Below are positions 10,910 through 34,997 of a stretch of 46,337 nucleotides of DNA, piece by piece. The notes below the pieces were generated by a model. The model had not been told where the DNA came from. It searched no databases and saw only the letters and a list, made by a program, of their open reading frames with translations. The DNA comes from an uncultured Verrucomicrobiae bacterium (GTDB taxonomy: Bacteria; Verrucomicrobiota; Verrucomicrobiia; Limisphaerales; JAFGQR01), in contig CAWBHS010000093.1 in NCBI GenBank assembly GCA_963788655.1, positions 1 through 46,337 of the forward strand. The letters run 5' to 3'. A program made the position numbers and the translations under genes. The first letter of the stretch is position 1. Each line of letters opens with the position of its first letter.

Positions 10910-11162
10910 CCCAACCCAACACCGCTTGTCCCGCAAAATCCCAACCCGCTCGCGCACTGAACGCCCTGACCGCTCGCAGCCCCGCGCCGTCAGGCCGGCT
11001 GCGAAAATCCAAGGCCAGCCGTTCTGCCGTCGCGGGCCTGCTCGCTCCAGGCAAAATGAGTCTGCCCGTGGCGTCGTCCGTCAACAGTATTGGCAAGTCG
11101 CTTGCCATCGGAATTAAGTTGGCATCACGGGACGTTGGTTGGACACTAGGCGGACTATTGGG

Positions 11163-14325: not shown

Positions 14326-14418
14326 TCGTCGCGGTCCCGCCCACGCGGGATCGGCTTCTCCGTCAAAGAGAAGGATGAGACCAGCCCGTCCTGCGGGTGC
14401 AGGATGGAACCGTTGATG

Positions 14419-14462
14419 GCCTTCATTCACCGCTTTGCCGGAGTCTGAAGGTTTTTTATTTT
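14419..14462 (+). terminator. Putative intrinsic terminator (riboswitch expression platform)
   Basis: GCCTTCA...TGAAGGT stem followed by a T-rich tract, between the aptamer and ATG 14523. Confidence 0.55.
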
Positions 14463-14522
14463 CAGTCTCCGCCTGGTCTCGCAATCCCAAACGTTTGCTT
14501 GTCGAGAATAGAAAGACCAGAT

Positions 14523-15503
14523 ATGCGGCCCGTTATTTTACTTTGCCCCCTGTTGGCGTTTTGCCCATTGATCCCGGCGATTTGCGTTGGAGCAGCGACT
14601 TTCCAGTCGGATTTCTCCACCGATCCCACCCCGCAAGGTTGGCGTGCGCAGGGCGATCCTTCCCTGTTCCATTGGAATGCCACCGATCAGCTTTTGGAAG
14701 TCACCTGGGATTCCTCGCGCGGCAATACCTATTTTTACCATCCGCTGAGAACCATCCTTTCCCGGCAGGACGACTTCCGCCTGAGTTTCGACGTGCGCCT
14801 TGATGATCTTGCAATCGGCACCACGCCGGACAAACCATACACGTTTGAATTGGCCATTGGTTTTCTGAATTTTGACCAGGCCACCAACACTGGGTTTCTC
14901 CGCGGTTCCGGTACGGATTCGCCCAATTTGGTGGAGTTCGACTATTTTCCGGATTCGGGATTTGGCGCGACGATTTCGCCGACCATGATCTCGAGCAACA
15001 TGGAATTCGTTAGCAGTTTCAATTACCCGGTCGAGCTGACATTGCACGAGTGGTTTCATGTGGAGATGAGTTACGCGGCCAGCAACCAGACGTTGATGAG
15101 CAGGCTCACGCACAATGGGGAGGAATTCGCTTCGTTGGAAGACGCGGTGGTCGGAACCGACTTTTCCGATTTCCGTCTCGATACGGTCGCGGTGATCAGT
15201 TACAGCGACGGCGGACAGGATCCCATGTTTGCCGGTTCGGTGCTGGCCCACGGCGTGGTGGACAACTTCCAAGTGATGGTGCCCGAACCGCCCATAGCCA
15301 ATCTGACTGGCGGTATCGCCGATGATCGTTGGCAAGTGCAATTCGACAGCCAGACCAACTGGATCTACCACTTGGAAGCCACCACCAATTTCTTCGAATG
15401 GTCTTCCGTGAACACCGCATCGGGAACGGGCGGTCCTTTGACGATGCGGGACGATCAAACCGCCGGCGCGCACTTTTACCGGGTGCGGGCTGACAAACCA
15501 TGA
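14523..15503 (+). CDS. Secreted hypothetical protein with Verrucomicrobia-type C-terminal 'FYRV' domain; B12-regulated
   Basis: Signal peptide [13 protein letters not shown]...; beta-rich body; ends [12 protein letters not shown]...HFYRVRA. Confidence 0.75.
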
Positions 15504-16321
15504 CGGATCATTGGACAACCCGATCGCTGCTTCGCGCGGAACCGGCCCACGCACTTCCGTGTGTGACCGGCCGAGCATCGGGGACGCGACTCCAGACAAG
15601 TGCCTTCACGCTGATCGAACTATTGGTGGTGATCGCGATCCTGGCGATCCTGGCGGCGCTGCTGTTGCCCGCGCTGGCGCAGTGCAAGGCGGCGTCCCAG
15701 CGAGTCAAGTGCCTCAGCAATCTGCGCCAATTGTCGTTTGCGGCGCAAATGTATTGGGATGAAAACGAGAGCCGGGCATTTCGATACCGCGGCGCGTACA
15801 CCAATGGCGGCGATGTTTTCTGGTTCGGTTGGCTGGAACGTTGGCATTCGGGTAATGAAGGCCGGCGCGCGTTTGATGCCGCGGCCGGGCCGCTTTATCC
15901 CTACTTGCGCGGACGGGGCATCGAGCTGTGCCCAGCGCTCAATTATTCGCAGCCTGAGTTCAAGGCCAAAGCCAACGCGGCGGCGTACGGGTACGGGATC
16001 AATTTGCACCTCACCGCACCGTCGTTGGCCAGCCTCAATCGGGTGCGGCAACCGTCGGGCGTGGTGGCGTTCGCGGACGCGGCCCAGGTGAACACGTTCC
16101 AAGCACCCGCCTCGCCCGCGCATCCGATGCTCGAAGAATTCTACTACGTCAGCACCAACTCCTACGAAGCCACCGCGCATTTCCGGCATCAGCATCAAGC
16201 CAACACGGTGTTTGTGGATGGCCACGTGGACCGGGAACCGCCGGCGCCGGGTTCGCTTGACGCGCGCATGCCTCAAGTATGGGTGGGCCGGTTGCCACCG
16301 GAACTCTTGCACATTCCGTGA
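15500..16321 (+). CDS. Prepilin-type N-terminal cleavage/methylation protein with H-X9-DG motif (DUF1559-like)
   Basis: [54 protein letters not shown] overlap with the upstream gene. Confidence 0.9.
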
Positions 16322-20830: not shown

Positions 20831-21625
20831 CTACCGCTGGCAAATCAGGTGGAAGCGGCTGGCATCGACCCAGCCGGCAGCGTCACTCGAGAGGCGGATG
20901 TAAAAGTAGTTTCCACGCTGCCGTTCCATGCGTCCCATTTCGCCCGCCGGCAGACGGGTGAGGACTTGCGCGTCTTGAGTGGGCGTGAGGCGCAGGCGAG
21001 TTTCCTTTGCGAGCACGACGCCCAAGTTCGACCGCGCCTGCACGCCGAAGAGGGCGGGAATCGTCAGCAGGAACACGGTGAATCCGGCCGCGGCCAATCC
21101 CTGGTGCCAGTCGGCTTTGCGCCAGTGAAAGATGCCCGGCAACAGGACCATCGCCACCGCCAGCCACAGACTGCCCCAGGCAATCCACGGCCAGACGTTG
21201 ACCGGCAGCCAAGTTGAACAAATCTCGTACCACGCCAAGTTGGGATCGTCGAGTTGGGCCTGCTTGCGCGCGAACCGGAGATTGGCCTTGGTGTTCGCAA
21301 AATACGGGTTCAACCAATGCGCCTGTTCCCACGCCAGGATGGCCGGGCCGACGTGACCGGCCATGTATTCGGCGTTGCCCAGGTTGTGCAAGACGCCCGA
21401 AGTTGGTTTGAGAGCAGCCGCCTGCTGGAAAACTTCCATCGCCTGCGAATACCCACCGGCCACATACATTTGGTTCCCTTGCTCAAACAACTGGTGGAAC
21501 TCAGCCGCCGCTCCGACGTGCAGGCACGGGGTGAAGGCCAGCACCAAGCCCAGGCAAATCGGCGCCAGCATACTCGGAGTCGCGGCCAGGTTGGCAAACG
21601 GTTGGCACATTGCCGTCCTCCTCAT
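20831..21625 (-). CDS. batE: TPR + SH3-like membrane protein (BatE-like)
   Basis: FEQGNQMY...HNLGNAEY TPR, 2 TM segments, C-terminal GWV SH3-like domain; last gene of the bat operon. Confidence 0.75.
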   Translation of the reverse strand: MRRTAMCQPFANLAATPSMLAPICLGLVLAFTPCLHVGAAAEFHQLFEQGNQMYVAGGYSQAMEVFQQAAALKPTSGVLHNLGNAEYMAGHVGPAILAWEQAHWLNPYFANTKANLRFARKQAQLDDPNLAWYEICSTWLPVNVWPWIAWGSLWLAVAMVLLPGIFHWRKADWHQGLAAAGFTVFLLTIPALFGVQARSNLGVVLAKETRLRLTPTQDAQVLTRLPAGEMGRMERQRGNYFYIRLSSDAAGWVDASRFHLICQR

Positions 21626-23655
21626 AACTGCGCCCTCATCTGCGCGAGCAACCGTTCCAGTTCGGGGCGTAGTCCCAACAATTGGCTGCCTTCCGGCAAC
21701 GTCCCGCCAAAGTGGAGCACGTCCGCCGCGGTGAAAAAGCGCTGGACGAGTTCACCGTTCTTGCCGTGGCGATCCGAGGCCGGAATGGCGCGCAACACGT
21801 CGCCGCAAACCAGCGCTTCCGGATTGGCTGCCCCGTGTGGCGCCGCGGCCTCGCGCATGGCATTGACGGCGGCCTTGACGAAATTGCGCGCGTCCTGGGC
21901 CATGGCGGCATGACGCAATTGACGCCGATAGTGTCGCAGTCCCTGGCGCGCGCGGGTTTTCAAAATGACCTCCGGATGTTCGGCCAGGAAGCGCCGTCGT
22001 CGATCCCAGAACCACAGTCCCGCCAGGGCCAGCGCCGGGAGGAATTGCAGCACCACGAACCAGGGCCGGTGTTGCAACGGCGTCAGGCTCGACGCCATCA
22101 CGCCCGGCGTTTCGGACAACCCGTTCATCACCAAGTCGCGTTCGCCCGTTGTTCGCGAGTCATCGCCACCACCCGCCAGGGAAGCGGCTCCCGGCGGCAG
22201 CAGTTTCGCGCCACCTGCAGCCGGCGATACCTCGAGGGGCACCGGGGGAATCGTGAGGTCCACATACGCTTTTCTAGCGGGATCAAAATAGCTGAACGGA
22301 ATTCGCGGGGTCGCCTTGATCTGGTCCGACAAGGGAATCAGCGTGTAATTGTAGGTGCAGTAACCGCGCTGTTGGACGAGTTGCGGCTGGGCGGCCTCGG
22401 ACGTGGGCTCGAACGTCTGCCATTCCCAAAGTCCTTCCAGCTTGGGCGGGATCATGCGGGCGAGGTTTCCCTGGCCCTTGATGGTAACGGTCAAGGTCAG
22501 CGGTTCGCCGGCGCGGATTTTGTTACTGGAGAGGTGTGGCTGGGTGAGGGTGAAAGTGCCGATGGCGCCGGTGAAGCCCGGCAGTTCGCCTTCTTTCGGC
22601 AACTGTTTTACCGTAATGGTCACCGGATCGGTGTCCAACAACGGATAGTACCCCGGCAGTTGCGCCGGCACCCCGGGAGTGGTCCGGGCCAGGAGCGCCT
22701 GCGCCTGCGCCTGCAATTTCAATTCGCCGGACTTGATGGGCGTGACATACATCTCCTGCACAATGGCGGCGACCGGTTTGCCTTCGACGGTCACAACCTT
22801 GCGGCTCTGCCGATAAAACATCGGGTCCAACAGGATGCCCTCGGTGGGAATCTCCACTCGGGTCAGTCCGCGAACCGTCTTGCCGTCCGGGTCGGTCAAC
22901 ACCACTTGAATGGGCACCGTTTGGCCCACGTAAATATCGCCCTCGGGAATCTCGACGGACAAGCGGGGAGGCTGCTCAACGCCGGTGGCGCCGGCGGGAA
23001 CGACCTGGAGACGGGCTGCGGGCACTTGCATGAACCGGCCGGAAACCGACACTGAAAATGGCGGAATGGTGTATGTGCCGGGTGCTTTGGCGCTGATATG
23101 GTAATTGAGCGTACTGCGCGGCTGCAACGTATTGGTCACGGTGGCATAGGATTCACTGCGTCCCCCCGCCACCACCTCCAACCCGGGCGGGGCCGGCAGA
23201 CTTTCCGGTGGCTGAATGACCCTCATCAACGCGGTGATGATGATGCGATAGGTGGCGCGCCCGCCTGCCGTAATGACCGGCGGATCGAACTGCGCGTAGG
23301 CTCGCGCCGGGGTGTCGATATCGATCGGCGGTTGCTGCATCATGAGGTTCAGCAGCGGATCGATGGCCGGGGCGGGTGCGGCTTGAGATTGGGTGATAGG
23401 CCGCCCGGACTGAGTATCCCAGATAATGGTGGCCTTGCCGGAACCCGAAGTGATTATCCGCGGTTGGCCAATGCGAGGCTGGAGTTGCGGTGGAGTCGAG
23501 GTCCGATTGAACTGGATCGGGGGTTGGGGCGAAGTGGGCCGCTTCAAAAGATTGGTCAACCCATTGTTAGCCTGGCCGGACGCGACGCCAATCCACCCGG
23601 CTGGCCACGCCATCAGCAAGACCCCGAAAACGATTCGATTTCCAATCATCCTCAT
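21622..23655 (-). CDS. batD: BatD-family protein
   Basis: Signal peptide, PGTYTIPP, YVGQ, FTGAIGTF, GEPLTLTVTIKGQGNL, FSYFDP, C-terminal TM. Confidence 0.85.
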   Translation of the reverse strand: MRMIGNRIVFGVLLMAWPAGWIGVASGQANNGLTNLLKRPTSPQPPIQFNRTSTPPQLQPRIGQPRIITSGSGKATIIWDTQSGRPITQSQAAPAPAIDPLLNLMMQQPPIDIDTPARAYAQFDPPVITAGGRATYRIIITALMRVIQPPESLPAPPGLEVVAGGRSESYATVTNTLQPRSTLNYHISAKAPGTYTIPPFSVSVSGRFMQVPAARLQVVPAGATGVEQPPRLSVEIPEGDIYVGQTVPIQVVLTDPDGKTVRGLTRVEIPTEGILLDPMFYRQSRKVVTVEGKPVAAIVQEMYVTPIKSGELKLQAQAQALLARTTPGVPAQLPGYYPLLDTDPVTITVKQLPKEGELPGFTGAIGTFTLTQPHLSSNKIRAGEPLTLTVTIKGQGNLARMIPPKLEGLWEWQTFEPTSEAAQPQLVQQRGYCTYNYTLIPLSDQIKATPRIPFSYFDPARKAYVDLTIPPVPLEVSPAAGGAKLLPPGAASLAGGGDDSRTTGERDLVMNGLSETPGVMASSLTPLQHRPWFVVLQFLPALALAGLWFWDRRRRFLAEHPEVILKTRARQGLRHYRRQLRHAAMAQDARNFVKAAVNAMREAAAPHGAANPEALVCGDVLRAIPASDRHGKNGELVQRFFTAADVLHFGGTLPEGSQLLGLRPELERLLAQMRAQL

Positions 23656-23662
23656 GCGGCGC

Positions 23663-24649
23663 TCACCACACCCGTCCGGAACGGTCCTGCGGCGGACGGG
23701 ATTCTTTGAAGCCCATGGGCAACTTGCGATTGCCGTCCAACATCATGGCCTCCAGCAACCGCGCGGCTTCCTCGGGCGTCAGCCACAATTTGCGGCCATC
23801 GCGGGGCTTGGCCTCTTTCTCGCCGGGCTTTGGCTCCTTGGGTTCGTCGGCGTCCTCGTCCTCTTCGTCGCCTTCACATTGTTGCTTGAGACTTTCGGGC
23901 AGAAGATCCTTCAATTGCTTCATCTTCTTCTTCAGATCGCTTTTCTTTTCGCCCATGGATTGCATGCACATTTGCAGCGCCTCCTGCCGGTCAATCAACT
24001 TGGCCAGGTTGCGATCCACTACTTCAGCATTGAATTGCGCGTCGTCGTATTTCCCGCGCAATTCCTGGGCGCTCTTAAAATCACCCGAGGCCCGTTGCCA
24101 TCGGCTGATCACCGCCCCGTAGGATTCGAGGGCCTGCTTGACGGCTTCCATGGCGGTCTTGAGTTGCTTGCGCGCGCCGCGCCCATGCATGTAGGCCGCG
24201 ACGATGGCATTGAGATCGTAGCCCGCCAGCGCCTCGTCCGCGGCTTGTAAGGCCGAATCCGCCGCGGCGTCGGCCATGGCCCCGTGCGCGTTCGCCGCCG
24301 TTCCGTCGGGCGCATCCTTGAGCACTTCCGCGCCTTGCTGAAAACGCACCTGCCCCAGGTTGTAGAGGGCAACAGGTTGCACGGTCTCGCGGTTGCGGGC
24401 GACGGCGGTCTGGAGGGCCAGTTCGGCGTCGCGCAATTTTCCCTCCCGCAACTTCTGAGTGCCTTCATTGTAAAGGGCACGGGAACTCTGGGAATCATCC
24501 TCGTCCCATAAGGCCGCCGAAGCGCTGACTCCGACCAGCAAGGCCATGGCCATTCCGATCCAACTGCCGCGCCCGCGCCGCACGGTCCATCCGGTGGGCG
24601 CCGGCACCGTCCCGGCGTTCCTGACATGATTTCGTTGCGTCGTTTGCAT
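23663..24649 (-). CDS. batC: TPR protein (BatC-like)
   Basis: ALYNEG/ALYNLG TPR motifs, DAQFN, acidic linker, LTPEEAARLLEA, terminal W. Confidence 0.7.
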   Translation of the reverse strand: MQTTQRNHVRNAGTVPAPTGWTVRRGRGSWIGMAMALLVGVSASAALWDEDDSQSSRALYNEGTQKLREGKLRDAELALQTAVARNRETVQPVALYNLGQVRFQQGAEVLKDAPDGTAANAHGAMADAAADSALQAADEALAGYDLNAIVAAYMHGRGARKQLKTAMEAVKQALESYGAVISRWQRASGDFKSAQELRGKYDDAQFNAEVVDRNLAKLIDRQEALQMCMQSMGEKKSDLKKKMKQLKDLLPESLKQQCEGDEEDEDADEPKEPKPGEKEAKPRDGRKLWLTPEEAARLLEAMMLDGNRKLPMGFKESRPPQDRSGRVW

Positions 24650-24652
24650 AAG

Positions 24653-25684
24653 TTACGTCTGCCTACTTTCGCTCACTCTCCGCCGCGTGCCAATCAAAGA
24701 TTCCAACACCAGCAGCAGGATCACCGCCGCAATGGGCAAATGGAAGCGGTCCACGCCCAATTTGCGCACTTTCGCGCCGCCCGGCAAATCGGTGGACGTC
24801 TCCACCAACAGCCGCACCCGGCTCATGCCTTCCCCGAGCGCGCCGAGCGGAAGATACTTTCCGTGGGTGGTATCGGCAATCTTGCGCAAAGTCGTTTCGT
24901 CCAGGCGGCTGACCACCACCTGGCCTTTGGCATCGCGTAACGGGGCACTGAGCCCCTGCGGCGTCCTATAAGTCACCACGCTGCCCGCCGGGGTGCCGAC
25001 GCCGACTGTAAATACCACCACGCCCTTTTCCGCCAGCTTGTTCGCGGTTTCGACCCCGGCTTTTTCCAAGTCTTCGCCGTCGGTCAGGAGCACCATGATT
25101 TTGCGGCGGTCATTCTTTTGCATCGCACCGAAACCTTCGTCCAGCGCGCGGCCAATGTCCGTGCCGAGGACCGGGATGGTCCGCTGATCGACGGCCATCA
25201 AGGCTTCGCGAAAGGCATCGTAGTCAAACGTCAGCGGGCACTGCAAAAAGGCGTCGCCGGAAAAGGCGACCAAGCCGACGCGTCCGCGTCCGTAGCGCTG
25301 CACGAAATCCAGAATGGCGAGTTGGGCCCGGCTCAATCGATTCGGCCGCACGTCCGTGGCGGTCATGCTGCGCGAACAATCCAGCAGGAACAGAATGTCA
25401 TCGCCGAGGGCCCGGGAAACCTCCGCCCGTTGACCCCATTGCGGCCGGGCCAACGCGAGGGACAATCCCGTTACCGCCAGCAACAACAAGCCCAGCTTCA
25501 CCAATCGCCGCGCCGGACTGTGCGAACGCAGCAGGTCGCCCAGCAGCTCGGGCGCGGCAAACTGCGCGATCTGCTTCCGCCGGGCCCACCGGGCGAAGGC
25601 GAACAGCGCCACCACCCCCAACGGCGCCAGCGCCGCCAGCCAGAGCCATTCGGGTTCCGCAAAATGGGGATGGGAAAAGTCCAT
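24653..25684 (-). CDS. batB: VWA-domain membrane protein BatB
   Basis: LARPQWG, MIDAS DCSRSM, PLTFD, LTDGED. Confidence 0.88.
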   Translation of the reverse strand: MDFSHPHFAEPEWLWLAALAPLGVVALFAFARWARRKQIAQFAAPELLGDLLRSHSPARRLVKLGLLLLAVTGLSLALARPQWGQRAEVSRALGDDILFLLDCSRSMTATDVRPNRLSRAQLAILDFVQRYGRGRVGLVAFSGDAFLQCPLTFDYDAFREALMAVDQRTIPVLGTDIGRALDEGFGAMQKNDRRKIMVLLTDGEDLEKAGVETANKLAEKGVVVFTVGVGTPAGSVVTYRTPQGLSAPLRDAKGQVVVSRLDETTLRKIADTTHGKYLPLGALGEGMSRVRLLVETSTDLPGGAKVRKLGVDRFHLPIAAVILLLVLESLIGTRRRVSESRQT

Positions 25685-25691
25685 TACATTC

Positions 25692-26732
25692 TCAAGGCAC
25701 GCGGCGATAGCGGGTGTTGCTCAACACCAGTTCCAATCCCAACAAGGCCAGCGCCGCCAGCAGCGGCCATTGGAACAGGGGCGTGTAAGTGGTGAACCGG
25801 CGCATCTTCACTTCGGTTTTCTCCAGCCGGTCAATCTCGTTGTAAATGCCCTCCAACTCCCGGCGGTTCGTGGCGCGATAAAACTTGCCGAACGAAATGC
25901 GCGCCATCCGGCCGAGAACATCATAGTTGGCCGGCTGCAAGGAAATCGTGGGAACCACATTGCCGGCCGGATCGAGTATGAGTTTGCCCGTGCTCGGCTC
26001 GAACCGCGGCAAATGACACGGTTCCTCGCGGCCAATGCCGATGGTGTAGAGCTTGCAGTGCAGCGCGGCGGACAATTCCGCCGCTGGAATGGGATCAATT
26101 TCACCGTGATTGTTGTCCCCGTCGGTCAGCAGAATAATGATCCGGCTCTTGCTGTTCTTGAGCGCCTGCAACCGCTTGACGGCGGTGGCCGCAGCGTCGC
26201 CGATGGCGGTGCCTAATTCGCGAATCATGCCGACGTGCAACCGCTGCAAATTCTGGATCAACCAATCGTGATTGAGGGTGAGCGGACTGGCCAGATACGG
26301 CACCGCCGAAAAGACCACGAGCCCAATGCGGTCGCTGGGACGACGGCGAATAAAATCCCCCAGCACGTCCTGGGCAATGTCCATGCGGGAGACGCGTTCG
26401 GAAGGCCGGCCCATATCGAGCGCCATCATGGACCACGACAAATCCAGCACCAGGACGATGTCCACGCCGCTGGCTTCGGTCTCGGTGCGATCATGGGCGA
26501 ACCGCGGACCGGCCAGCGCCACCAGGCACAGTGCCACCGTCAACAAGCGCAGAAAAATGAGCAACCGTCCAATCGCCGATCGGGCCGCTCCGCCCGCCGC
26601 TCGCGCCAGGTCGGCGCTGGGGAACCGCAAGGCCGAGAACTTGCCGATGCGCCCGCGCAGAAACGCATAGACCGGCAGCAAGGCCAGCAGACCCAGAATC
26701 CACGGGTATTGAAATTGGAAGTGCGGACTCAT
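25692..26732 (-). CDS. batA: VWA-domain membrane protein BatA
   Basis: MIDAS DLSWSM, DRIGLVVF, GTAIGDA, LLTDGDNN, IDRLEK. Confidence 0.9.
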   Translation of the reverse strand: MSPHFQFQYPWILGLLALLPVYAFLRGRIGKFSALRFPSADLARAAGGAARSAIGRLLIFLRLLTVALCLVALAGPRFAHDRTETEASGVDIVLVLDLSWSMMALDMGRPSERVSRMDIAQDVLGDFIRRRPSDRIGLVVFSAVPYLASPLTLNHDWLIQNLQRLHVGMIRELGTAIGDAAATAVKRLQALKNSKSRIIILLTDGDNNHGEIDPIPAAELSAALHCKLYTIGIGREEPCHLPRFEPSTGKLILDPAGNVVPTISLQPANYDVLGRMARISFGKFYRATNRRELEGIYNEIDRLEKTEVKMRRFTTYTPLFQWPLLAALALLGLELVLSNTRYRRVP

Positions 26733-27655
26733 GCGACGCTGGGGGTTGCCGGGGCGGCAGCGGCTTGCGCCTGTACCCGTTGCGCCGCCGCCCGCCGACG
26801 CGCCTCGACTTGATCAACGAACGTCAATGCTTTGGCGACAGCGCCCAGCAGAATTGGAGGTGGGGTCGGAGCAAACTTCTTCGTGTCGCAGTTCCGGAAA
26901 AATTCAATCAGCGCGACGGGCAGTTCCGTTCCGAGCAGGGGGTGGTTGGCCAGTTGGTTGTCCAATTCCTCGGGCGTCAGTTCTTCGGATCGCAAATCGA
27001 GCGCGCGCGCCAGGTAATGGCGGACAATGCGCGAAACTTCACTGAGCAGCGGGAAATCCTCCGGGCGATCCCGCAACGCGGCCAGGGCCTGGCGGGCGAC
27101 TGCCTCGGGCGGAATGACCACGACCGGTTTCGGCCGGAGCCACCACCAGACCAACAAGGCCACGCCGAGGACGATGCACGTGACCGCCAGCACCACGCCC
27201 CACGCATGCTGTTCCCACCACGTCGGCAACAGCAAGTCTTCCGGCGGACGCAATTCGGGAATTTCTTCCGCCGCCCACACTGGAACCACTGCTGCCGGAA
27301 GCCAGAAAAGAACTCCGAGGACTTGTCTAAGTCGGAACGATTCAGTTGGAGTAGCTGCGTTCGTGAGAACGCGGCTGACTGGCGCAGTGAAACGCCGGCT
27401 CCAGGCGGAGGTAATCCGGTCACTTTTCAATGACCAGTGGGACGCAGCCGTTGGCGCAGTGTTGCCCTTTAAAATTAGCCGTGTTCTCACGAACGCAGCC
27501 ACCGTCACTGCATACATCCGGATAAGAGATCCAGCCCCGCGGGAGCAGCCAACGTAAGGCAGCTCCTTCTTGCCGCGAACAGATCGGCATCCCGAAATAA
27601 TTTGAGCCTCCTTACGTCGGCTGCTACGGATTTTCACCATGCTCAGTCTGCTCAT
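26729..27655 (-). CDS. DUF4381-like membrane protein of the bat operon; N-terminus interrupted in frame by REP-like palindromes
   Basis: ATG 27655 overlaps the DUF58 stop (ATGA); EIPELRPP, TM segment, SEVSRIVRHYL, CDTKKFA. Confidence 0.65.
   Translation of the reverse strand: MSRLSMVKIRSSRRKEAQIISGCRSVRGKKELPYVGCSRGAGSLIRMYAVTVAAFVRTRLILKGNTAPTAASHWSLKSDRITSAWSRRFTAPVSRVLTNAATPTESFRLRQVLGVLFWLPAAVVPVWAAEEIPELRPPEDLLLPTWWEQHAWGVVLAVTCIVLGVALLVWWWLRPKPVVVIPPEAVARQALAALRDRPEDFPLLSEVSRIVRHYLARALDLRSEELTPEELDNQLANHPLLGTELPVALIEFFRNCDTKKFAPTPPPILLGAVAKALTFVDQVEARRRAAAQRVQAQAAAAPATPSVA
27351..27627. repeat. Two REP-like inverted pairs (27351-27376/27477-27502 and 27543-27565/27604-27627)
   Basis: GTAGCTGCGTTCGTGAGAACGCGGCT / AGCCGTGTTCTCACGAACGCAGCCAC; GAGCAGCCAACGTAAGG / CCTTACGTCGGCTGCTAC. 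Confidence 0.75.
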
Positions 27656-28566
27656 GCCCGCCGCCACCGCCGCTTCTCGAAGAACCGCTGCAAGGTGTGG
27701 GCAAACGGTTCCGCCGTGCTGAGGCGGACGGTGTCCACGCCCGTGCGTCGCAGCGTCTCGTCCAAGTACGCCACGCGCTGCTGATTGGTGGCGGCGTAGG
27801 TTTCCCGCACCGACGACCGCGCCGAGTCCACTTCCAGCATTTCCCCCGTCTCCGCGTCCTCGACGGTCAGCAAACCGGCGTTGGGCAATTGGCCTTCCCG
27901 CGGATCGTGCAAGTGAACGCAAATCAGATCGTGCCGCGCATTGGTCAAGCCCAGTTCCTGCACGATGTCGCGTCCCGATTCCGGGTGGGTGGCGTCCGTG
28001 CCGAAGCTGTGGAGGAAATCCGTCAGCAGAAAAATGATCGAGCGCCGGTGCAGCAAGTGATTCAGGTAAGTCAGCGCCGCGGGGATGTTGGTGCCGCGAT
28101 GTTGGGGCTCGAAAAACAACATCTCCCGGATGACCCGGAGAATGTGCCGCCGCCCTTTGCGCGGGGGAAGAAACAGTTCCACCCGGTCCGTGAACAGGAG
28201 CAATCCGATCTTGTCACTGCTGCGCGCGGCCGAGAACGCGAGTGTGCTGGCCACTTCGGCGGCGAATTGCCGTTTACTGCGCTGCACTGAGCCGAACGCC
28301 CCGGAGGCCGAAACGTCCACGGCCAGGATGATCCCCAGTTCGCGTTCCTCGCGGTATTTCTTCACGAACGGCCGCCCCATGCGATAGGTGACGTTCCAGT
28401 CGATATCGCGCACGTCGTCGCCCGGCATGTAATCGCGCAACTCCTCGAAATCCATGCCGCGCCCCTTGAAATGGCTCAGGTAGGCGCCCACCATGGTATC
28501 GTTGACGAGCCGGTTGGTGATCATCTCCACCCGGCGAACCGTCTTGAGCATTTCGGCGAGGGTCAT
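27652..28566 (-). CDS. DUF58 (VWA-like) protein
   Basis: FKGRGMDFEELRDYMPGDDVRDIDWNVT, EEREL, DVSASG. Confidence 0.92.
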   Translation of the reverse strand: MTLAEMLKTVRRVEMITNRLVNDTMVGAYLSHFKGRGMDFEELRDYMPGDDVRDIDWNVTYRMGRPFVKKYREERELGIILAVDVSASGAFGSVQRSKRQFAAEVASTLAFSAARSSDKIGLLLFTDRVELFLPPRKGRRHILRVIREMLFFEPQHRGTNIPAALTYLNHLLHRRSIIFLLTDFLHSFGTDATHPESGRDIVQELGLTNARHDLICVHLHDPREGQLPNAGLLTVEDAETGEMLEVDSARSSVRETYAATNQQRVAYLDETLRRTGVDTVRLSTAEPFAHTLQRFFEKRRWRRA

Positions 28567-28569
28567 GGC

Positions 28570-29559
<990 letters not shown>

Positions 29560-29699
29560 GGAAAACCGAGATTACAACCACAATTGACCCGTTCACTCAA
29601 GGGTGAAAAGCACGCCGCGATCCCTGCCGCCCCCTTAACTGGGCGGCCGATCGACGTTCGTAACGTTGCTAAACACAATGCTAGGAGTAGAACACCGAT

Positions 29700-30541
29700 C
29701 CCCTTTGGTCAATTGCAGACGCTCATTTTTCCACCGGCACCACGCCGCCAACGCGGGCGCGCTGCAGGATCTGGCACAGAACCCCCAGCGCCTCGGCGCC
29801 ACGCTGGGCATGCTGGGCGTGCTGCACACCTGGAGCCGCACCTTGATCCATCATCCGCACGTCCACTTCCTGGTGCCGGGCGGCGGGTTGAGTTTGGACC
29901 AACGCACCTGGGTGCCCGCCCGCAAAAAGTTCCTGTTGCCGGTCCAGGCCCTGAGCGACCACGGCCGCACCTTGTTCCGCCGCCACCTCGCGCGCCATCA
30001 CCCCGCGGCGATGAAGAACATCCCGGCGCCGGTGCTGAGCGCCGCCGAACAAGCCGCGTGGCAGCCGCCCGCCGCTCTGGAGGCCGAGCGCCACGAACCC
30101 GCGGACCCGGACGTGCAACCCGCAACGAGCGTTCCGCAACGCTCCCAGTGTCCGCACTGTGGCGGGGAGTTGGTGCGCGTGGCGCGGTGGCGCGCCGGGC
30201 ATCCCTTACCGCGGCCGCCGCCGGGCCGCGCCCCGCCCGCCCCATGAAAGCGCCCGCGCCCGGCAACCCTTCAAGTCGGAGACTGACGAAGCTCCCCCGG
30301 CGCGGTGTGCTCGCGTCCGGTCCCGAGGTGGTGCCCGCCGGGCGCCCGCGCCGCCAAGCCGCGTTTCGGTCCAGGGCCACGGGGGGATTCCGGAGTCGTG
30401 CGACCCCAGCCGCCGGCTGGGGAGCAAACGGTTGGGGGACGATGGGACCGTGCGGCCGGCGAACCCGCGACACTTTCCGCAAAGGGTTCACCAGGTTACG
30501 CCGGGGCGGGCCGCTGAACCTTCGACGCGGCTTCGTTCAAC
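29700..30541 (+). mobile_element. IS91-family (Y2/HUH) transposase remnant with internal deletion, plus 3' end
   Basis: GMLGVLHTWSRTLIHHPHVHFLVPGGG HUH motif and C-terminal CPHCGG; N-terminus and Y-xxx-Y region missing; ends GCGGCTTCGTTCAAC. Confidence 0.8.
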
Positions 30542-30657
30542 CCTGGAATGCAGAGAACCCGGGGGCGAAGCGCTCCGACTTCAAACCTTGATCCTGTTCC
30601 TCCAACCCCCCAGTCTTCGCGCCCCCGCGTTCTCTACATTCCTTTCTTCTGTTCGGC
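30535..30657. other. attC-like integron recombination site (orientation ambiguous)
   Basis: GTTCAAC-CCTGGAATGCAGAGAAC...GGGGGCG...CGCCCCC...GTTCTCTACATTCC...GTTCGGC imperfect hairpin bounded by AAC and GTT. Confidence 0.6.
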
Positions 30658-31082
30658 GGCTTGCGATACAACTCAACACGCTTGATGAGGCGGAACGCTG
30701 GACGCTGCCGACGGTCATCGAACGTCCGGTGGTAAACACGCAACTCGCTTCCGCTGCGCGTCACATACAACTGATCGCGCTGATGCTTCACAACTCCGGC
30801 AAATACAGAAATCACCGTCTTGGGAATACCCTCGGCCTGATACTGGTCAGGCAAAATGGAGGTCGAAACCCACTCCGCCGACCGAAACAACATGACCCGC
30901 TGCCCATCGACCGTGAGATGCACAGTGCCAGCCGGTGTGGAATTAGCATCCGGCTCAAGCTGGACAAACCACGAAACCGAAACCTTCGATGGAGACTTCA
31001 CGCCAAGTGAAACACTCGACTTGTCTGCTCCTGCGAACGCTGTCATCGCTGCAACGGCAAATAGAAAAATGCAGGTTTTCAT
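30537..31082 (-). CDS. Integron-cassette-like secreted hypothetical protein (181 aa)
   Basis: MKTCIFLFAVAAMTAFA signal peptide; ATG a few bases after the reconstituted GTTAGGC; ORF reads into the attC-like hairpin. Confidence 0.6.
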   Translation of the reverse strand: MKTCIFLFAVAAMTAFAGADKSSVSLGVKSPSKVSVSWFVQLEPDANSTPAGTVHLTVDGQRVMLFRSAEWVSTSILPDQYQAEGIPKTVISVFAGVVKHQRDQLYVTRSGSELRVYHRTFDDRRQRPAFRLIKRVELYRKPPNRRKECRERGGAKTGGLEEQDQGLKSERFAPGFSAFQG

Positions 31083-31094
31083 GGTGTGTGACGC

Positions 31095-31911
31095 ACCGGG
31101 TAGGCGTAGGCGGTCACCCGCCCACGCCCCCCTAAGAACCGGACTTGAAAGTTTCCCTTCATCACGGCTCAAGCCTCTCCAAGGCCACCCCGGATGCGGG
31201 GGACCCGCGTAACCAGGAGGCCGGTGACACCCAAAGGCGTCATGGACCTTCCCAATCCCACTTGGCAATACCGGTCGGCGGCCATATCGCGCTCGGCTCC
31301 TTTGGGCCGCAGCACCGAGAGGCACCAAGCGACGGGCGTCGCTCGTCCTATGCTTCTCTCGCTTGAAGGGGTTCCGCTGATTTTCTTGCCAGGAGACACC
31401 AGATCGACGTGGGCCTATCCGGTCCATTACCGACCGGCCTTGGCTTGTTCGATCCTCTTCATGCTGCCTCCCCTGGGCCTGCCTTGCGGTCGGCTTGCCT
31501 GGATACTCTCCAGGCGGGAACTGGCAGCTTTTCCATGTTCCGCATTCTCCACAGGATGGGTTAGGTCCACTCTGTACACCGGCGGTGCGCCATTCGCGTC
31601 GGGCTACGTTAGACAGCCCGAACTTGACCGCTGGCCTTCTTTTGGCCGGAGCCTTAAAACAGCCTCGTCTGGCTCGTTCCTCTGACGATGCTTGCGAGTG
31701 TTCACGTGGGTTGACCCTACCATCCAATTCTAGCGCCGCACCCGGATTGAGGCTCCCAGGCTGGCTACATTGTCGGGAAGGCTTCACACCCTGGACAGTA
31801 GCCTTGCGGCCGCCCGCCCAACGCATGCTTCCCTGGAATACCTGCCGCGAAAGGCAGGACTGAGTCAGGTTGCCCATGCTCAGCAGTGATGAATGCGACT
31901 TCATGTCACAA
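31095..31911 (-). ncRNA. ORF-less group II intron (IIB-like), 817 nt
   Basis: 5' TTGTGACATGAAGTCGC; domain V GAGCCGTGATGAAGGGAAACTTTCAAGTCCGGTTC; domain VI GGGGGCGTGGGCGG...CCGCCTACGCCTACCCGGT; no RT ORF. Confidence 0.85.
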
Positions 31912-32035
31912 CTAACGATAGAAGTGAGCCACAGGTGCTGGCAGTAAACTCCCGACGAAGAAGAGGATCGTCAGATTACCCGTGACGCCCTGACTGCTGT
32001 GACGGGCACCTGTTGCCTCCACTGGCTGGTTGAAC
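31912..32035 (-). other. attC site with its R' box split by the intron
   Basis: GTTCAAC-CAGCC-AGTGGAG-GCAACAGGTGC...GCACCTGTGG-CTCACT-TCTATC-GTTAG|GC. Confidence 0.8.
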
Positions 32036-32291
32036 GAAGCCGCTGCGCGGCGGGAGAGGGAGGAGGCGGGCTCGCCTGCGGCTCGGAGGGTTAGGCTGCC
32101 GGTGGTTGGGGCTTTCATTGGGACTCCGGTTGGGTTTACGCTGGGGCGTCCGGACGGCATTTTCGGGTCGCTCCGGACGTTGCCAATGTTAACTCAAATA
32201 GCATGTACCATGATTAAAAAAAGACTTCCCCGTACGCAATCCTAAAGCGCTTCGTCATTGGAATCCGGGATGGGTCAGCCTGGAATGGCGC

Positions 32292-32630
32292 TTAGTTAAG
32301 GCCTAAAACTTTCTTGGACAGACGTTTACGGCGACGGGTATCGGGGAGGGTTCCGAAGATGAATTGACGGCTCAGCTGCTGCATCCGGTCCAGAATGCGC
32401 TCGACCTCTCGCCAGTTCTGGATGGCCTCCGCCAAGGCCTCGTACTGCTCTCGTGACAAAGCCACCGACACGGTCTTGCCACGCTCCTTGCGCGTCCATT
32501 GATAGTGCGGGCCGCCGGCCCCGGGCCCGCGGTCTTGGACGTAGCCTTGGCTGATCCAGCCCGGCCGGGCCAGTTGGGTCTGCAAACGGGCGTATTCCGC
32601 CTCCAGCGCAATGCGATTGACTTTCATGAA
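32292..32630 (-). CDS. IS-associated small protein (DUF6788-like); start codon uncertain
   Basis: GPHYQWTRKERGKTVSVALS motif; lies inside the IS, divergent from the transposase. Confidence 0.65.
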   Translation of the reverse strand, partial: FMKVNRIALEAEYARLQTQLARPGWISQGYVQDRGPGAGGPHYQWTRKERGKTVSVALSREQYEALAEAIQNWREVERILDRMQQLSRQFIFGTLPDTRRRKRLSKKVLGLN

Positions 32631-32677
32631 TAGAGAGGATAGCACGTTCGTCAATAGGGCGGTATATATACCGCCCT

Positions 32678-34091
32678 ATGCATACGCCCTTCTTCCCCCA
32701 GTTCCGCCCCCGCCTGGCCCCCTGCCGCCGGCGCCTCACCCAAACTGTCCGCCACGCCTCCTTGGCCCAGCTCGAACACTACTTGGAAGGGATCTTCCCA
32801 CCGCACCTCCTGGCCCAAGAGGACGAAGGCCTCAACAGCCGGGACCGGATCTTTAGCCTGCGGCTCACTTTCCAGTGTTTCCTGTGGCAACTCCTCAAAC
32901 CCAAGACCGCCTGCCGCGAGGTCGTGCGCCAAGTGCAGGCCCTCTTCCGCCTCAAGGGCCGGGGTCCGGTCGACGAGGATACCGGCGCCTATTGCCAAGC
33001 CCGCCAGCGCCTGCCCAAAACGCGCCTGGAACAGATCGTGGCCGCCACGGCCGCCACGGCCGATCAAAGTCGTCGACGCCTCCTCCGCTCAGATGCCCGA
33101 TACCCCACTGAACCAGCAACGGTATCCCCAGCCCGCCGGGCAGAAGCCAGGCTGCGGCTTTCCCGTGATCAAGTTCCTGCTGCTCTTCTCGTTAAACAGT
33201 GGCTCAGTGCTCAACGCCGTCATGGGTAACCTCAGCCAGCACGATCTGCGGTTGGTGCGCCAACTGCAGGGCCAACTCCGGAAGGGGGACATCCTCTTGG
33301 GTGACCGGGCCTACGGTGAGTACGGCACCTTGGCGTCCTGGCCGCTGGCCGGCGTCGATGTGGTGGCGCGCCTGCACCAAGCCCGCAAAGTCGATTTCCG
33401 CAAAGCCCGCCGTTTGGCCAAAAACGACGCCCTCTTTGTCTGGCGCAAAGGTCCGTCGCAAACGGATATTTTCTCCCGCAAGCAATGGGATCAGTTGCCC
33501 GACCAGATCACCGGGCGGATCGTGCGCTTCACCGCCGTCATTCGCGGCCATCGCGGCCGCCGCATCACGTTGGTCACCTCGCTGCTGGACCCCAAACGCT
33601 ATCCGGCCGAGCAACTCATCGGCCTCTATGCTCGCCGCTGGCGACTGGAACTGTGCCTGCGCGACCTCAAGACGACGATGGGCATGGAACTGTTGCGCGG
33701 TCAGTCGCCCGACCTGGTCGAGAAGGAACTGTTGATGTACCTCATCGGGCACAATGTCATCCGCTGCCTCATGGCCCAGGCTGTCGCTCGCCACCAAGTC
33801 GACTTGGAGCGCGTCAGCTTCCGGGGGACCGTCGATGCCGCGCGTCAGTTCACGGCCGCGATCCTGCAAGCCCGCAGCCGCAAAATGCGCGATCAACTCT
33901 GGGAGGATCTCCTGTTGAGTTTGGCGCGAGACTTGGTCCCTTACCGCCTCAACCGATCCGAGCCGCGCACACGCAAACGTCGGCCCAAGCCCTTCCCGTT
34001 ACTAACCAAACCACGGCGGCAGTTTAAAGAAGTCTCACACCCCAACTACTACTGGAAAGCCAAGCCCCGCAATTACCGCGCCCTTAACTAA
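32678..34091 (+). pseudogene. IS4-family DDE transposase, frameshifted/short deletion near 33060
   Basis: N-part RDRIFS...AYCQARQRLP; second frame IKVVDASSAQMPDT...GDRAY...LYARRWRLELCLRDLK. Confidence 0.85.
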
Positions 34092-34997
34092 GCGCCATTC
34101 GGGTCCGACCCAATTATCCACTGCCGGACCGCCCGTCGGGGCGTCCTGGGCGTCCCATTCCGGTTCGTGGGTTTCGGCGCTCCAACCACAGAGGGTGCCA
34201 TAGGAGGGTAACGCGGCACCCCAGTGGATGAGGGCACTCACCAACAGGGTGGACCAAAGGCCCCGTCGGGAAGAGGTTGGCGGTTGCCTGGCCTCGAGGG
34301 TTTTCAGACGGTTCCGCTTGCCTCTTGTTTTGAAGTGCCGCCCACCGGCCATACCCACCATCCCAAGGCCAAAGAAAACCAACGCCACATTTACTGGCTC
34401 GGGCACCGCGGTGATGTTCACTGAGAAGCCGTTCAGGGTGGACACGCTTCCCCCGGAAACGTCGGCAAGGAAAAACGTCCAGTCACCGTTGGGATCGGTC
34501 CCGTTGAACACGCTCAATCCCGCGTCGCGTGAAGCATTGTCGAAGACGATCACGGAAGCCAAGGGAGAGATGTCACGCCCATCAGCGTTGTAGGTGGCCG
34601 TGACGGTTGCACCGCTGTGGCCGCCGTAGAGGTGGATGTCGGTGAGAATCGAACTATCCGTGAGGGTGATTGCCAATCCGGCATCGCCATAGCCGAACTC
34701 GTTGCCGGAGCTCCGGCCCACGCGGTTGAGCAGCACCGCCAAACCGGAACCATGCGAGAGGTAACCGTACAAATCCCCGTTCCATCCACCGGAAATATTC
34801 AGGCTAACGCTGACGTCGGCAATTTGCGTGGCGGGATCACTCAGGTTGAAGTTGAAGGCGACACCGGCGCCGTCGTTGTCCGGGATCGCCTGGCTGCCGC
34901 TCCAGTTATAGACCAGTGCGGCGCGGCTGGCGGGATTGGCGAAGAGCAGCAGATTGAGGGTCGCGACCGTGGTGAGCAGAGTTGATTTCGCGTTCAT
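34035..34997 (-). CDS. PEP-CTERM protein with proprotein-convertase P-like domain; ORF runs on into the IS end
   Basis: Signal peptide; IPDND, GDLYGYLSH, NGDWTFFLAD; VPEP + TM + basic cluster. Confidence 0.8.
   Translation of the reverse strand: MNAKSTLLTTVATLNLLLFANPASRAALVYNWSGSQAIPDNDGAGVAFNFNLSDPATQIADVSVSLNISGGWNGDLYGYLSHGSGLAVLLNRVGRSSGNEFGYGDAGLAITLTDSSILTDIHLYGGHSGATVTATYNADGRDISPLASVIVFDNASRDAGLSVFNGTDPNGDWTFFLADVSGGSVSTLNGFSVNITAVPEPVNVALVFFGLGMVGMAGGRHFKTRGKRNRLKTLEARQPPTSSRRGLWSTLLVSALIHWGAALPSYGTLCGWSAETHEPEWDAQDAPTGGPAVDNWVGPEWRLVKGAVIAGLGFPVVVGV

Follow-up and report, generated by a model that had tools for sequence, protein, structure and literature searches.

Several described systems bear on the element reported here. 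ISMno24, from plasmid pMNOD01 of Methylobacterium nodulans, and ISShvi3 are IS91-family insertion sequences with an upstream tyrosine recombinase gene, like the new elements. The recombinases of IS91 elements are described as the closest relatives of the integron integrase IntI and are placed in an 'integron-like' subgroup that lacks the insertion of IntI (10.1101/542381); the literature that we found does not state what their substrate is. Group IIC-attC introns are described as inserting at the R'' box of attC sites, opposite to cassette transcription (PMC7923331, PMC9229058). The ISCR elements, which are IS91-related rolling-circle elements located beside class 1 integrons, are credited in one account with moving adjacent genes (PMC7923331).

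The window analysed here is a stretch of 46,337 nucleotides from an uncultured Verrucomicrobiae bacterium (contig CAWBHS010000093.1). It contains two inverted copies of a 16-mer, GCGGCTTCGTTCAACC, which an earlier note on this DNA had interpreted as the end of an IS91-type element joined to attC-like hairpins.

The 16-mer and the element that it bounds

As the earlier note had reported, the two copies of the 16-mer are exact (0 mismatches), and they were the only matches in the window when up to two mismatches were allowed. Under the same tolerance, shuffled DNA gave on average 0.04 matches, and two matches were reached in 1 of 100 shuffles, a frequency that leaves a little room for a chance inverted repeat in GC-rich DNA. 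Self-BLAST of the window found no similarity between the flanks of the two copies outside the 16 nt. The decisive evidence is external: the 16-mer recurs outside the window, being found among the matches listed at the ends of recombinase and transposase elements in many phyla, so that a chance origin of the pair can be dismissed for all practical purposes.

The scan used one genome per species and gave at least 123 loci. These are an arbitrary subset, and all counts apply to the matches listed, that is, 127 distinct occurrences (125 in the loci and 2 in the window). The inner context CCGY-loop-GCGG was common to 49 of the 127 listed occurrences, and in 25 the inside held a gene for a recombinase or an IS91 transposase in the expected orientation. 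Twenty-three listed occurrences had the left-end signature together with an inner flank of at least 1.5 kb; int or tnpA pointed away from the 16-mer in 14 of these 23, and among the long-flank left-end-type occurrences listed, 8 had neither gene. At seven listed occurrences devoid of the left-end signature, tnpA pointed toward the 16-mer.

Intact copies of about 2.6 kb were found at loci L080, L021 and L004, with the 16-mer at both ends (one mismatch at the right end of L004) and a mutual identity of about 71% over 1.9 kb. The proposal that the 16-mer is an IS91-type end was correct: it forms the inverted repeats at the ends of an IS91-family element with two genes, one for an Xer/IntI-like tyrosine recombinase and one for a Y2 HUH transposase. 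The recombinase gene (int) lies upstream and is followed by the transposase gene (tnpA). Pfam matched the two proteins with Phage_int_SAM_4 plus Phage_integrase and with Zn_Tnp_IS91 plus Y2_Tnp, respectively, and the transposase scored 334.9 bits with the IS91 model NF033538. A recombinase gene upstream of tnpA within common inverted repeats was seen in L004, L008, L020/21, L033, L037, L041, L043, L051, L074, L076 and L079/80. The closest solved structure to the recombinase was an integron integrase (2A3V, E 3.6e-33), which ranked above XerA and XerD, and the top NCBIfam model for its N-terminal half was TIGR02249; the insertion, or extra domain, specific to IntI is absent. This IntI-like gene had no place in the earlier reading.

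On the tnpA-sense strand, the left side of the element reads target hairpin, G/TTGAAC (the slash marks the junction), GAAGCCGC and a mini-hairpin. Then come int, tnpA and a conserved box, in that order; after the box there are about 45 nt, GCGGCTTC-GTTCAAC-C, a long hairpin belonging to the element and 5-9 nt, up to a right junction of the form G/TT followed by the remainder of the target R'' box, complemented. At a distance of 11 nt from the left junction, the mini-hairpin (CCGC-loop-GCGG) has a constant stem and a variable loop. The box CACTTTCCGCAA occupies the same position in L080, L021, L004 and L071, and a related box, CCCATAG, is present in other lineages and in ISMno24. The 16-nt repeat itself is conserved across lineages whose recombinase and transposase proteins share only 30-45% identity.

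Two copies and a cassette in the window

The window holds two dead copies of this element, in the same orientation (tnpA on the + strand), one at the R'' box of each of two successive attC sites (Table 1). Copy 1 (~29650-30651) retains the right part only and copy 2 the left end only, and an IS4-like end adjoins the break of both.

Table 1. Positions of features at the two element copies in the window
Feature	Position	Strand	Remarks
IS4-like terminal-repeat remnant at the broken left side of copy 1	29627..29645	.	direct repeat D9 with 34076-34094, 84%
IS91 Y2 transposase remnant, copy 1	29666..30247	+	PF04986; lacks N-terminal zinc domain and ~100 internal residues
Conserved right-end box CACTTTCCGCAA	30471..30482	+	~45 nt before the 16-mer
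16-mer, right-end copy, of copy 1	30527..30542	+	GCGGCTTC is the family-wide terminal repeat; GTTCAAC is R-box-like
Cassette ORF	30537..31082	-	181 codons as read; native part to ~30652
Element's own end hairpin, hp2 family	30545..30642	+	fold and 6-relative alignment; symmetric, no extrahelical bases
Right junction GTTCGGC	30651..30657	+	G or GTT from the element; remainder complementary to the target R'' (GCCGAAC, - strand)
ORF-less group II intron	31095..31909	-	at cassette 5' end, same direction as ORF; 5' end placed by GTGAC
attC site	31910..32035	- (top strand)	R1 31.9 bits, E 1e-5, full length
attC, R' side	L' arm 31938-31923; R' 31916-31910	-	spacer TCTATC; R' GTTAGTT
attC, R'' side	R'' 32035-32029; L'' arm from 32023	-	R'' GTTCAAC; spacer CAGCC; two extra bases in L'' arm
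16-mer, left-end copy, of copy 2	32028..32043	-	sequence match and left-end context
Left end of copy 2	32029..32270	+	mini-hairpin, leader, first ~17 int codons; cut at 32270
Mini-hairpin CCGC-GCA-GCGG of copy 2	32040-32050		
int start in copy 2	ATG 32210; A7 run 32216-32222	+	A7 start region conserved
IS4-like insertion sequence truncating copy 2	32271..34112	+	31-nt inverted repeats 32271-32301 / 34082-34112; Pfam DDE_Tnp_1, DUF6788

The left 16-mer had been said to terminate an IS91 transposase remnant, and indeed the Y2_Tnp ORF ends 280 nt before it. This ORF matched PF04986 with 70.1 bits (cut-off 20.9), over profile positions 1-82 of 183 only; its NF033538 score of 90.3 bits is under the cut-off of 125 because it is a fragment. 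In a tblastn search with the intact 413-residue L080 protein, only residues 129-225 (29744-30034, 67% identity) and 326-393 (30008-30202) aligned; there was no Zn_Tnp_IS91 match, and neither the N-terminal zinc domain nor the catalytic tyrosine region is present. Judged from its sequence, copy 1 is dead. Its similarity to relatives ends at the right junction. For copy 2, blastn matched the left end of L004 (93% over 43 nt) and element positions ~380-420 of L080 and L004 (E 2e-5 and 5e-4). Beyond the IS4-like element, tblastn gave no recombinase or IS91 transposase match.

Both copies stand in a small cassette array transcribed on the - strand and are antisense to its cassettes. Between the 16-mers lies one ordinary cassette, made of the group II intron and the ORF, together with the attC of the upstream cassette. 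The last ~38 codons of the ORF run through the hairpin of the insertion sequence, with the stop codon inside the 16-mer; the ORF matched no Pfam or NCBIfam family, and the protein atlas gave no usable match. An integron integrase was found neither among the 46 window ORFs scanned by family nor, by tblastn with the recombinase of the insertion sequence, anywhere in the 46 kb. The window array is at best a remnant of an array without integrase.

In the intron, Rfam recognised RF02012 (D1D4-7) at 31734-31859 with 61.9 bits and RF00029 (D5/D6) at 31095-31172 with 49.6 bits, so that a group II ribozyme core is present; the frames of its 815 nt contained no reverse transcriptase or other ORF family. 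The rule given for group IIC-attC introns is a reverse transcriptase and insertion into the bottom strand of attC, at R'' (TTGT/T) and against the direction of the cassettes (PMC7923331). The window intron departs from this rule in both respects, the missing reverse transcriptase and the position, which is behind R' on the top strand and in the direction of the ORF.

The earlier note had proposed that two identical ends, each fused to an inverted target attC, bound a capture unit at 30527-32043. The two 16-mers are indeed identical, inverted and inward-facing, and a hairpin with an AAC box comes after each of them, but their inner contexts differ. The left one goes with the right-end box and tnpA and the right one with the mini-hairpin of a left end and the beginning of int; copy 1 contributes its right end and copy 2 its left end, both oriented with tnpA on the + strand. 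Moreover, the left hairpin travels with the element, 30527-32043 has no target duplication or common flank, and the at least 123 loci contained no relatives of the intron (blastn) or of the cassette protein (tblastn) except the window itself. We hold such a capture unit to be extremely unlikely. A foldback or MITE reading of the same segment was rejected, there being no target duplication and no second copy.

End hairpins and attC targets

Inward of each copy of the 16-mer the DNA folds into a hairpin. Both hairpins, with their AAC boxes, had been taken for attC-like sites; this held for the right one, whereas the left one is the element's own and not a target attC. The left hairpin has a 22-bp stem (-29.6 kcal/mol on the - strand, z = -3.3), and an alignment of 6 relatives gave 19 base pairs, 4 of them with compensatory changes. 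Among the matches listed, seven loci held a hairpin of this family, and in all seven it adjoined the 16-mer. No match between 30535 and 30657 was obtained with the attC covariance model described below (R1), on either strand and with E up to 10; of attC features, only the boxes GTTCAAC and GTTCGGC fit. It is this co-occurrence, the compensatory changes, the lack of extrahelical bases and the lack of an R1 match that assign the hairpin to the element. The spacers of this site are unequal (1-3 nt on one side, 5-9 nt on the other), and different hairpins occupy the same place in other lineages and in ISMno24.

In 17 of 19 cases, an end hairpin folded better on the tnpA-antisense strand (G.T pairs 31 versus 5); the sample includes related lineages and does not amount to 19 independent events. 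The same comparison was neutral for native attC sites (9 to 6; G.T pairs 12 versus 10), which had been intended as a positive control and were usable only as a composition control.

Sites on the target side were recognised with R1, a narrow, lineage-specific model trained on 9 native array attC sites. It was built on an alignment (A2) with one partly misaligned row; a MAFFT realignment without L010n (A3) was worse at the 5' arm. A rule-based attC scanner proved unspecific, with 105 matches in real and 73 in shuffled DNA, so only hand-checked sites were used, and then the covariance model. An Rfam scan of 29500-32400, with E up to 10, found no attC-like family.

In the window, the site at 31910-32035 was the sole R1 match below E 0.27. 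It folds between 31923 and 32023 into an imperfect hairpin with spacers of about 5 nt, its 5' (R''-side) arm carrying a G and an A as extra bases; canonical sites of the same family have C and A there. Its R'' box GTTCAAC fits RYYYAAC but is supplied by the insertion sequence, and its R' box GTTAGTT fits GTTRRRY in 6 of 7 positions. This is a genuine attC adjoining copy 2.

Among the matches listed, R1 recognised 13 sites next to the insertion sequence at other loci as well as the window's own, each beginning at the GTTCAAC of the 16-mer. These represent 14 of the 49 left-end-type flanks listed; one further flank, that of L115, gave a weak match (E 0.017). The IS91 subgroup thus adjoins attC hairpins far too often for chance, which supports attC targeting, as the earlier note had suggested. 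Within a locus, all attC sites share a strand, which is antisense to tnpA, and cassette arrays were found in L071 (with a HicB/HicA cassette), L004, L040, L042 and L051. Some complete elements (L080, L021, L043) stand beside other hairpins: in L080 a short one, in L021 a flank of no clear type, and in L043 inverted copies of a tRNA 3' end, in which ARAGORN found no tRNA and which fit none of the models. Either the target range of the element is wider than attC, or R1 is too narrow.

The right junction of L004, GTTCGGC, gives a rebuilt R'' of GCCGAAC. This is the exact complement (7/7) of the R' box of the left-junction attC, and the adjacent attC has the same sequence as its native R''. Put together, the flanks yield a single intact attC, and no base is duplicated. 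The corresponding figure for L051 is 6/7, and GTT starts 13 of the 14 right junctions (14 elements).

Two copies at the R'' boxes of successive attC sites, as in the window, were also seen in L071 and L004, giving an IS-cassette(s)-IS arrangement at all three places. Cassette capture, which the earlier note had raised as a possibility, may give such an arrangement, but two independent insertions into one array would produce the same picture. A fourth case, L057, was dropped because it has no hp2-family hairpin.

With a hairpin bounded by RYYYAAC-like and GTTRRRY-like boxes and a location inside cassette arrays, the element might be taken for an ordinary integron cassette, its hairpin serving as attC and a host integron integrase moving it. 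This is contradicted by the exchange at the target R'' rather than R', and by the junctions, where the element hairpin lies beside the target R'' half and the target hairpin beside GTTCAAC, the reverse of the canonical attC x attC product. In addition, the element invariably runs antisense to the cassettes, its hairpin is without extrahelical bases or an attC model match, and the L080 and L043 copies are outside recognisable arrays. We consider passive movement as a cassette very unlikely.

A possible mechanism and its relation to known systems

A two-gene element that inserts at attC R'' by way of an HUH-made circle and a recombinase exchange probably accounts for these observations, although we say so with moderate confidence. 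The HUH transposase, with the polarity of IS91 strand displacement, would peel off the tnpA-antisense strand as a single-stranded circle. In this circle the two 16-mers could pair into a 16-bp stem closing over the element's hairpin, which would form a folded, attC-like site free of extrahelical bases. The IntI-like recombinase, lacking the extra domain of IntI, would then exchange strands in the common AAC/GTT triplet, its partner being the folded top strand of the target attC, at R''. Insertion would leave two attC-like sites, so the array would remain formally intact and the element would look cassette-like. As to the enzyme making the insertion, recombinase or HUH transposase, we infer it, and the recombinase is the more natural candidate for attC specificity.

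Pure IS91-type rolling-circle transposition would assign the recombinase another role, or none, in target choice. On the tnpA-antisense strand, the HUH enzyme would make its origin cut after the ...AAC of the target R'' and its termination cut behind the GTTCAAC at the end of the element, ahead of which stands the mini-hairpin. The classical IS91 target rule is GTTC/CTTG, and to our knowledge classical IS91 relatives have no recombinase, which counts in favour of this scheme. The antisense junctions, target NAAC to element and element GTTCAAC to target spacer, fit such cut-and-join as well as they fit the two-enzyme model, and the mini-hairpin with its constant stem is in keeping with it. Insertion in one orientation beside a tetranucleotide, with no duplication of the target, is likewise described for IS91, and end hairpins for Rep transposons in general (PMC10288648). 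However, exact 16-nt inverted repeats are unneeded by a strand-specific nuclease, yet they have been kept while the proteins diverged. A four-base target also leaves the restriction, in one orientation, to the R'' boxes of folded attC sites unexplained, and the scheme does not account for the full R''-stem-R' architecture of the element's own site or for a co-encoded recombinase that is IntI's nearest relative. Transposition by the HUH enzyme alone is possible, if rather unlikely, and we retain the two-enzyme reaction as our preferred explanation.

For the window itself the significance is modest, since it has two dead copies and one cassette. More generally, these elements bear on the origin of the integron integrase and of attC, and they supply a concrete substrate and a testable reaction for their recombinases. 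They are a third kind of attC invader beside IS1111-attC and IIC-attC introns, and their insertions make pseudo-attC sites and bring recombinase genes into arrays, a possible source of error in integron annotation. A speculative, and in our opinion unlikely, extension is that the element would be a free-living, self-mobilising sister system of integrons, with an IntI-like recombinase, its own folded attC-like site and an HUH enzyme providing the single strand, and would parasitise arrays through the attC top strand. In that case IntI and attC recombination may have arisen by domestication of such an element, or the process may have run the other way, and cassettes could be moved from array to array by paired copies.

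ISMno24 has the same recombinase-then-Y2-transposase pair (NC_011892.1 annotation, Pfam), a left end with ..AAGCCGC-loop-GCGG, and at the right end GCGGCTTC, preceded by the CCCATAG-type box and followed by a hairpin. The GTTCAACC half of the 16-mer is missing from it (0 matches with up to 3 mismatches allowed). The subgroup described here is distinguished by its R-box-like GTTCAAC, by ends that close in the manner of attC and by its insertion at the R'' box of attC sites. The ISCR elements differ in lying beyond the 3' conserved segment rather than at attC and in lacking a gene for a recombinase; with the ISCR clade model the element scored only 30 bits, against a cut-off of 925. IS1111-attC elements (IS110 family) and group IIC-attC introns likewise insert into attC in a specific orientation, but by unrelated enzymes, namely a DEDD transposase with bridge RNA and a ribozyme with reverse transcriptase. 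The IntI/attC system shares with the element a recombinase of the integron-like subgroup, nearest in solved structure to 2A3V, a folded hairpin with RYYYAAC/GTTRRRY-type boxes, and exchange in the AAC/GTT triplet. It differs in that the element recombinase is without the IntI insertion and its own site is without extrahelical bases and has unequal spacers; the element targets R'' on the top strand, whereas IntI targets R' on the bottom strand, and the element supplies its own HUH enzyme.

Two decayed copies around a cassette

An earlier note had placed two identical IS91-like ends in inverted orientation around a cassette gene and an intron, each fused to the AAC of an attC-like site. The window search confirmed both copies of the 16-mer GCGGCTTCGTTCAACC, at 30527-30542 (+) and 32028-32043 (-). 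No third copy was found in the window at up to 2 mismatches, and shuffled sequences gave a mean of 0.04 matches, with two matches in 1 of 100 shuffles. The flanks of the two copies show no similarity past the 16 nt. The intron and the cassette ORF indeed lie between the inward-facing ends, and the left 16-mer belongs to an IS91-type remnant, a gutted tnpA (Y2 HUH transposase gene) in ORF 29666-30247, whose Pfam Y2_Tnp match covers only profile positions 1-82 of 183.

Layout of the IS91-integrase remnants (copy 1, left; copy 2, right) and neighbouring features
Feature	Position	Strand	Details
IS4-like IS, cutting the array	32271-34112		31-nt inverted repeats, DUF6788 ORF, DDE transposase over two overlapping ORFs
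Copy 2, left end	32270-32029		first ~17 recombinase codons and mini-hairpin
attC	32035-31910	-	
ORF-less group II intron, start of next cassette	31909-31095	-	Rfam
Cassette ORF	from 31082	-	12 nt past the intron
R'' remnant	30657-30651	-	GCCGAA/C
Copy 1: hairpin, 16-mer, box, gutted tnpA	down to ~29650		
IS4-like end remnant, broken side of copy 1	29627-29645		

A hairpin is present inward of either 16-mer. The attC covariance model, trained on 9 native (uninterrupted) sites alone, is specific to its lineage and gives rough E-values; with filters off, its sole significant match in the window was the right site (full length, 31.9 bits, E 1e-5; next best E 0.27), and the left hairpin went unmatched. 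By this model, the attC reading held on the right and failed on the left. Both copies are dead, and the remainder of the second attC is lost. Since the end remnant on the broken side of copy 1 is related to the IS4-like IS, both copies are broken beside an IS4-like end. A scan of 46 window ORFs gave no match to an integrase family. The same layout, with cassettes between two IS copies, recurs in L071 (three cassettes) and L004 (two cassettes), loci from the genome scan described below.

Rfam recognized two parts of the intron, both on the minus strand (31734-31859, 61.9 bits; 31095-31172, 49.6 bits). It lies directly after R' on the attC top strand and runs in the direction of the cassette ORF, whereas the IIC-attC introns described in PMC7923331 occupy R'' on the bottom strand and run counter to the cassettes. 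It had no relatives in the at least 123 loci of the scan.

Directly left of the IS debris ends a Bat/MoxR operon (20831-29559, minus strand: MoxR AAA_3, DUF58, two BatA-VWA genes, TPR, BatD), and the mobile DNA occupies its upstream region. Elsewhere in the window are a row of RHS-repeat genes (688-13214, plus strand), one with a transglutaminase core and DUF6531, which with the small family-less ORFs between them resembles an Rhs locus with spare tips; and a cobalamin riboswitch (14149-14333, plus strand, 80.2 bits), followed by a family-less ORF (14397-15503) and by another ORF (15500-16321), which carries a prepilin-type N-methylation motif.

Distribution and intact elements

Scanning one genome per species yielded at least 123 loci with the 16-mer (5-kb flanks for 80), or at least 127 distinct occurrences once overlapping loci were removed and the window's two included; MAG assemblies in this sample may carry frameshifts. 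Hosts among the matches listed were Verrucomicrobiota, 'delta-proteobacterial' MAGs, Acidobacteriota, Nitrotoga/Gallionella, Azonexus, Bradyrhizobium, a Bifidobacterium MAG and others. In 49 occurrences among these matches, the inner context is that of the window's right copy: a very small hairpin, CCGY-loop-GCGG, with whose second arm the 16-mer opens. Where the inner flank of these reached 1.5 kb or more (23 of those listed), a recombinase and/or IS91 transposase gene pointed away from the 16-mer in 14, tnpA pointed toward it in 1, and neither gene was present in 8. Among the 45 listed long-flank occurrences without this context, tnpA pointed toward the 16-mer in 7, as at the window's left copy; the remaining 38 had no such gene inside and look like chance matches in coding DNA.

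The search for intact copies proposed by the earlier note was successful. Elements of ~2.6 kb with inverted 16-mers at both ends were found in L080 (= L079), L021 (= L020) and L004 (1 mismatch at its right end), with ~71% identity over 1.9 kb. Their first gene encodes a tyrosine recombinase (Phage_int_SAM_4 and Phage_integrase), and the second an IS91 transposase of 405-413 aa (Zn_Tnp_IS91 and Y2_Tnp; NF033538, 334.9 bits). For the L004 recombinase, 293 residues by read-through, the best solved relative was 2A3V, an integron integrase matched in two stretches (E 3.6e-33), followed by XerA (1.2e-29) and XerD (2.2e-19). Among NCBIfam models, TIGR02249 fitted the N-terminal half of the recombinase best, with a score far under its cut-off.

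In the verrucomicrobial lineage, the recombinase gene starts with ATG, one or two codons and a run of seven A (window 32210-32223), in an A7-G form (L004, L057, L089, L080, L067, L112) or an A7-C form (L021, L040). The long frame is -1 relative to that ATG and opens directly after a stop codon. Its conservation between species makes this arrangement look like programmed slippage, not an assembly error.

Element ends and the attC target

Where one genome has several copies (L004 twice, L057, L089), these share one sequence inside the 16-mer and diverge directly outside it. Beyond the left end stands an attC-type hairpin: GTTCAAC in the role of R'', a 5-nt spacer, an arm carrying two additional bases, which are C and A where the site is clearest, a variable loop, a 5-nt spacer, then GTTCGGC, GTTCTGC or GTTAGGC. 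Uninterrupted sites of the same attC family, near the element, on the same strand and at cassette spacing (L071, L004, L040, L042, L051), have R'' boxes GGCCAAC, GCCGAAC or ATCGAAC. Among the listed loci, the model matched 13 IS-adjacent sites (L004 twice, L089, L042, L040, L071, L051, L057, L033, L031, L075, L106, L112), all beginning at the GTTCAAC of the 16-mer, one further site weakly (L115, E 0.017), and additional native sites on one strand per locus. The hairpins adjoining the complete elements in L080, L021 and L043 are no recognisable attC; the association with attC predicted in the earlier note is supported by the 13 sites and the window's right site.

Two loci have features of their own. 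L071 (120-6914, minus strand) holds at least nine attC matches on one strand over ~7 kb, with a decayed element copy mid-array and a HicB/HicA cassette; no integron integrase was seen in its 7-kb contig. In L043 (2300-2362 and 5090-5135), a 33-nt tRNA 3' end (T arm and acceptor) flanks the complete element as two inverted copies, and behind each copy stands a separate terminator-like hairpin. Joining the flanks would give a perfect palindrome around TGTTAACA; no tRNA was found there by ARAGORN.

At the right end, one hairpin family follows the 16-mer in the window, L080, L021, L004, L071, L087 and L120. It is symmetric, without bulged bases, and its six-member alignment has 19 pairs, 4 with compensatory changes. 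After 7-9 nt comes GTTCGGC, GTTGCGC, GTTAGGA or GTTAGGC, after which similarity between loci ends. The family was found in 7 distinct loci among the matches listed, beside the 16-mer in all 7, and other lineages have different hairpins at this position, followed by GTTATGC, GTTAGGC, GTTAGAG, GTTGGGC, GTCAGGC, GTTAACA or GTTTGTC. For these reasons, the right-end hairpin moves with the element. An IS256/Mutator-family IS sits in the loop of the L004 hairpin (7590-9068).

The array around the L004 element is continuous. On the cassette strand, the element's right junction (GTTCGGC) gives an R'' of GCCGAAC, which is the exact complement of R' (GTTCGGC) of the left-junction attC and also the box that the neighbouring attC has as its native R''. 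In L051, GCATAAC pairs with R' GTTAGGC at 6/7. Because of this complementarity, and with no duplicated bases at the junctions, the element sits at R'', always antisense to the cassettes, and the point of exchange falls within the AAC/GTT triplet common to both. With its ends joined, its own site is GCGGCTTC-GTTCAAC-hairpin-GTTGAAC-GAAGCCGC, where a 16-bp stem closes an attC-like fold.

Possible mechanism and known relatives

End hairpins were more stable on the tnpA-antisense strand in 17 of 19 cases (G.T pairs 31 vs 5), and in IS-occupied attCs the top strand had 20 G.T pairs and the bottom strand 3; native attCs were neutral for the same strand (9 to 6; G.T pairs 12 vs 10). All these counts include related lineages. 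This asymmetry suggests that the element would react as a folded single strand, the tnpA-antisense one, which we take to be the strand that the IS91 model displaces starting at the origin end, on the downstream side of tnpA. The junctions fit equally well with insertion by the HUH transposase alone, which would cut behind AAC. Recombinase-mediated exchange would be the most economical reading of the sequences, given that the 16-mer is exactly inverted, that the site is built as R''-stem-R' and that the recombinase is kin to IntI.

That kinship is already in print: in the preprint 10.1101/542381, the 'integron-like' subgroup includes recombinases 'found in IS91 and IS3 transposons', which lack IntI's insertion. 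We infer that a recombinase without this extra domain goes with a site of its own without extrahelical bases. Full-text searches turned up no account of the conserved end core, of a hairpin of attC type at the ends or of regular insertion at R''; one may exist in ISfinder, in subscription papers or in bioRxiv supplements.

IS91 elements with a recombinase gene are already known and have database names. One of them, ISMno24 from a Methylobacterium plasmid, carries the same gene pair, with a left end ..AAGCCGC-TCTC-GCGG.. and a right end ..GCGGCTTC followed by a hairpin; unlike the GTTCAAC subgroup, it is without GTTCAACC. On this comparison, GCGGCTTC is the terminal repeat of the whole family, and GTTCAAC(C) the mark of a subgroup.
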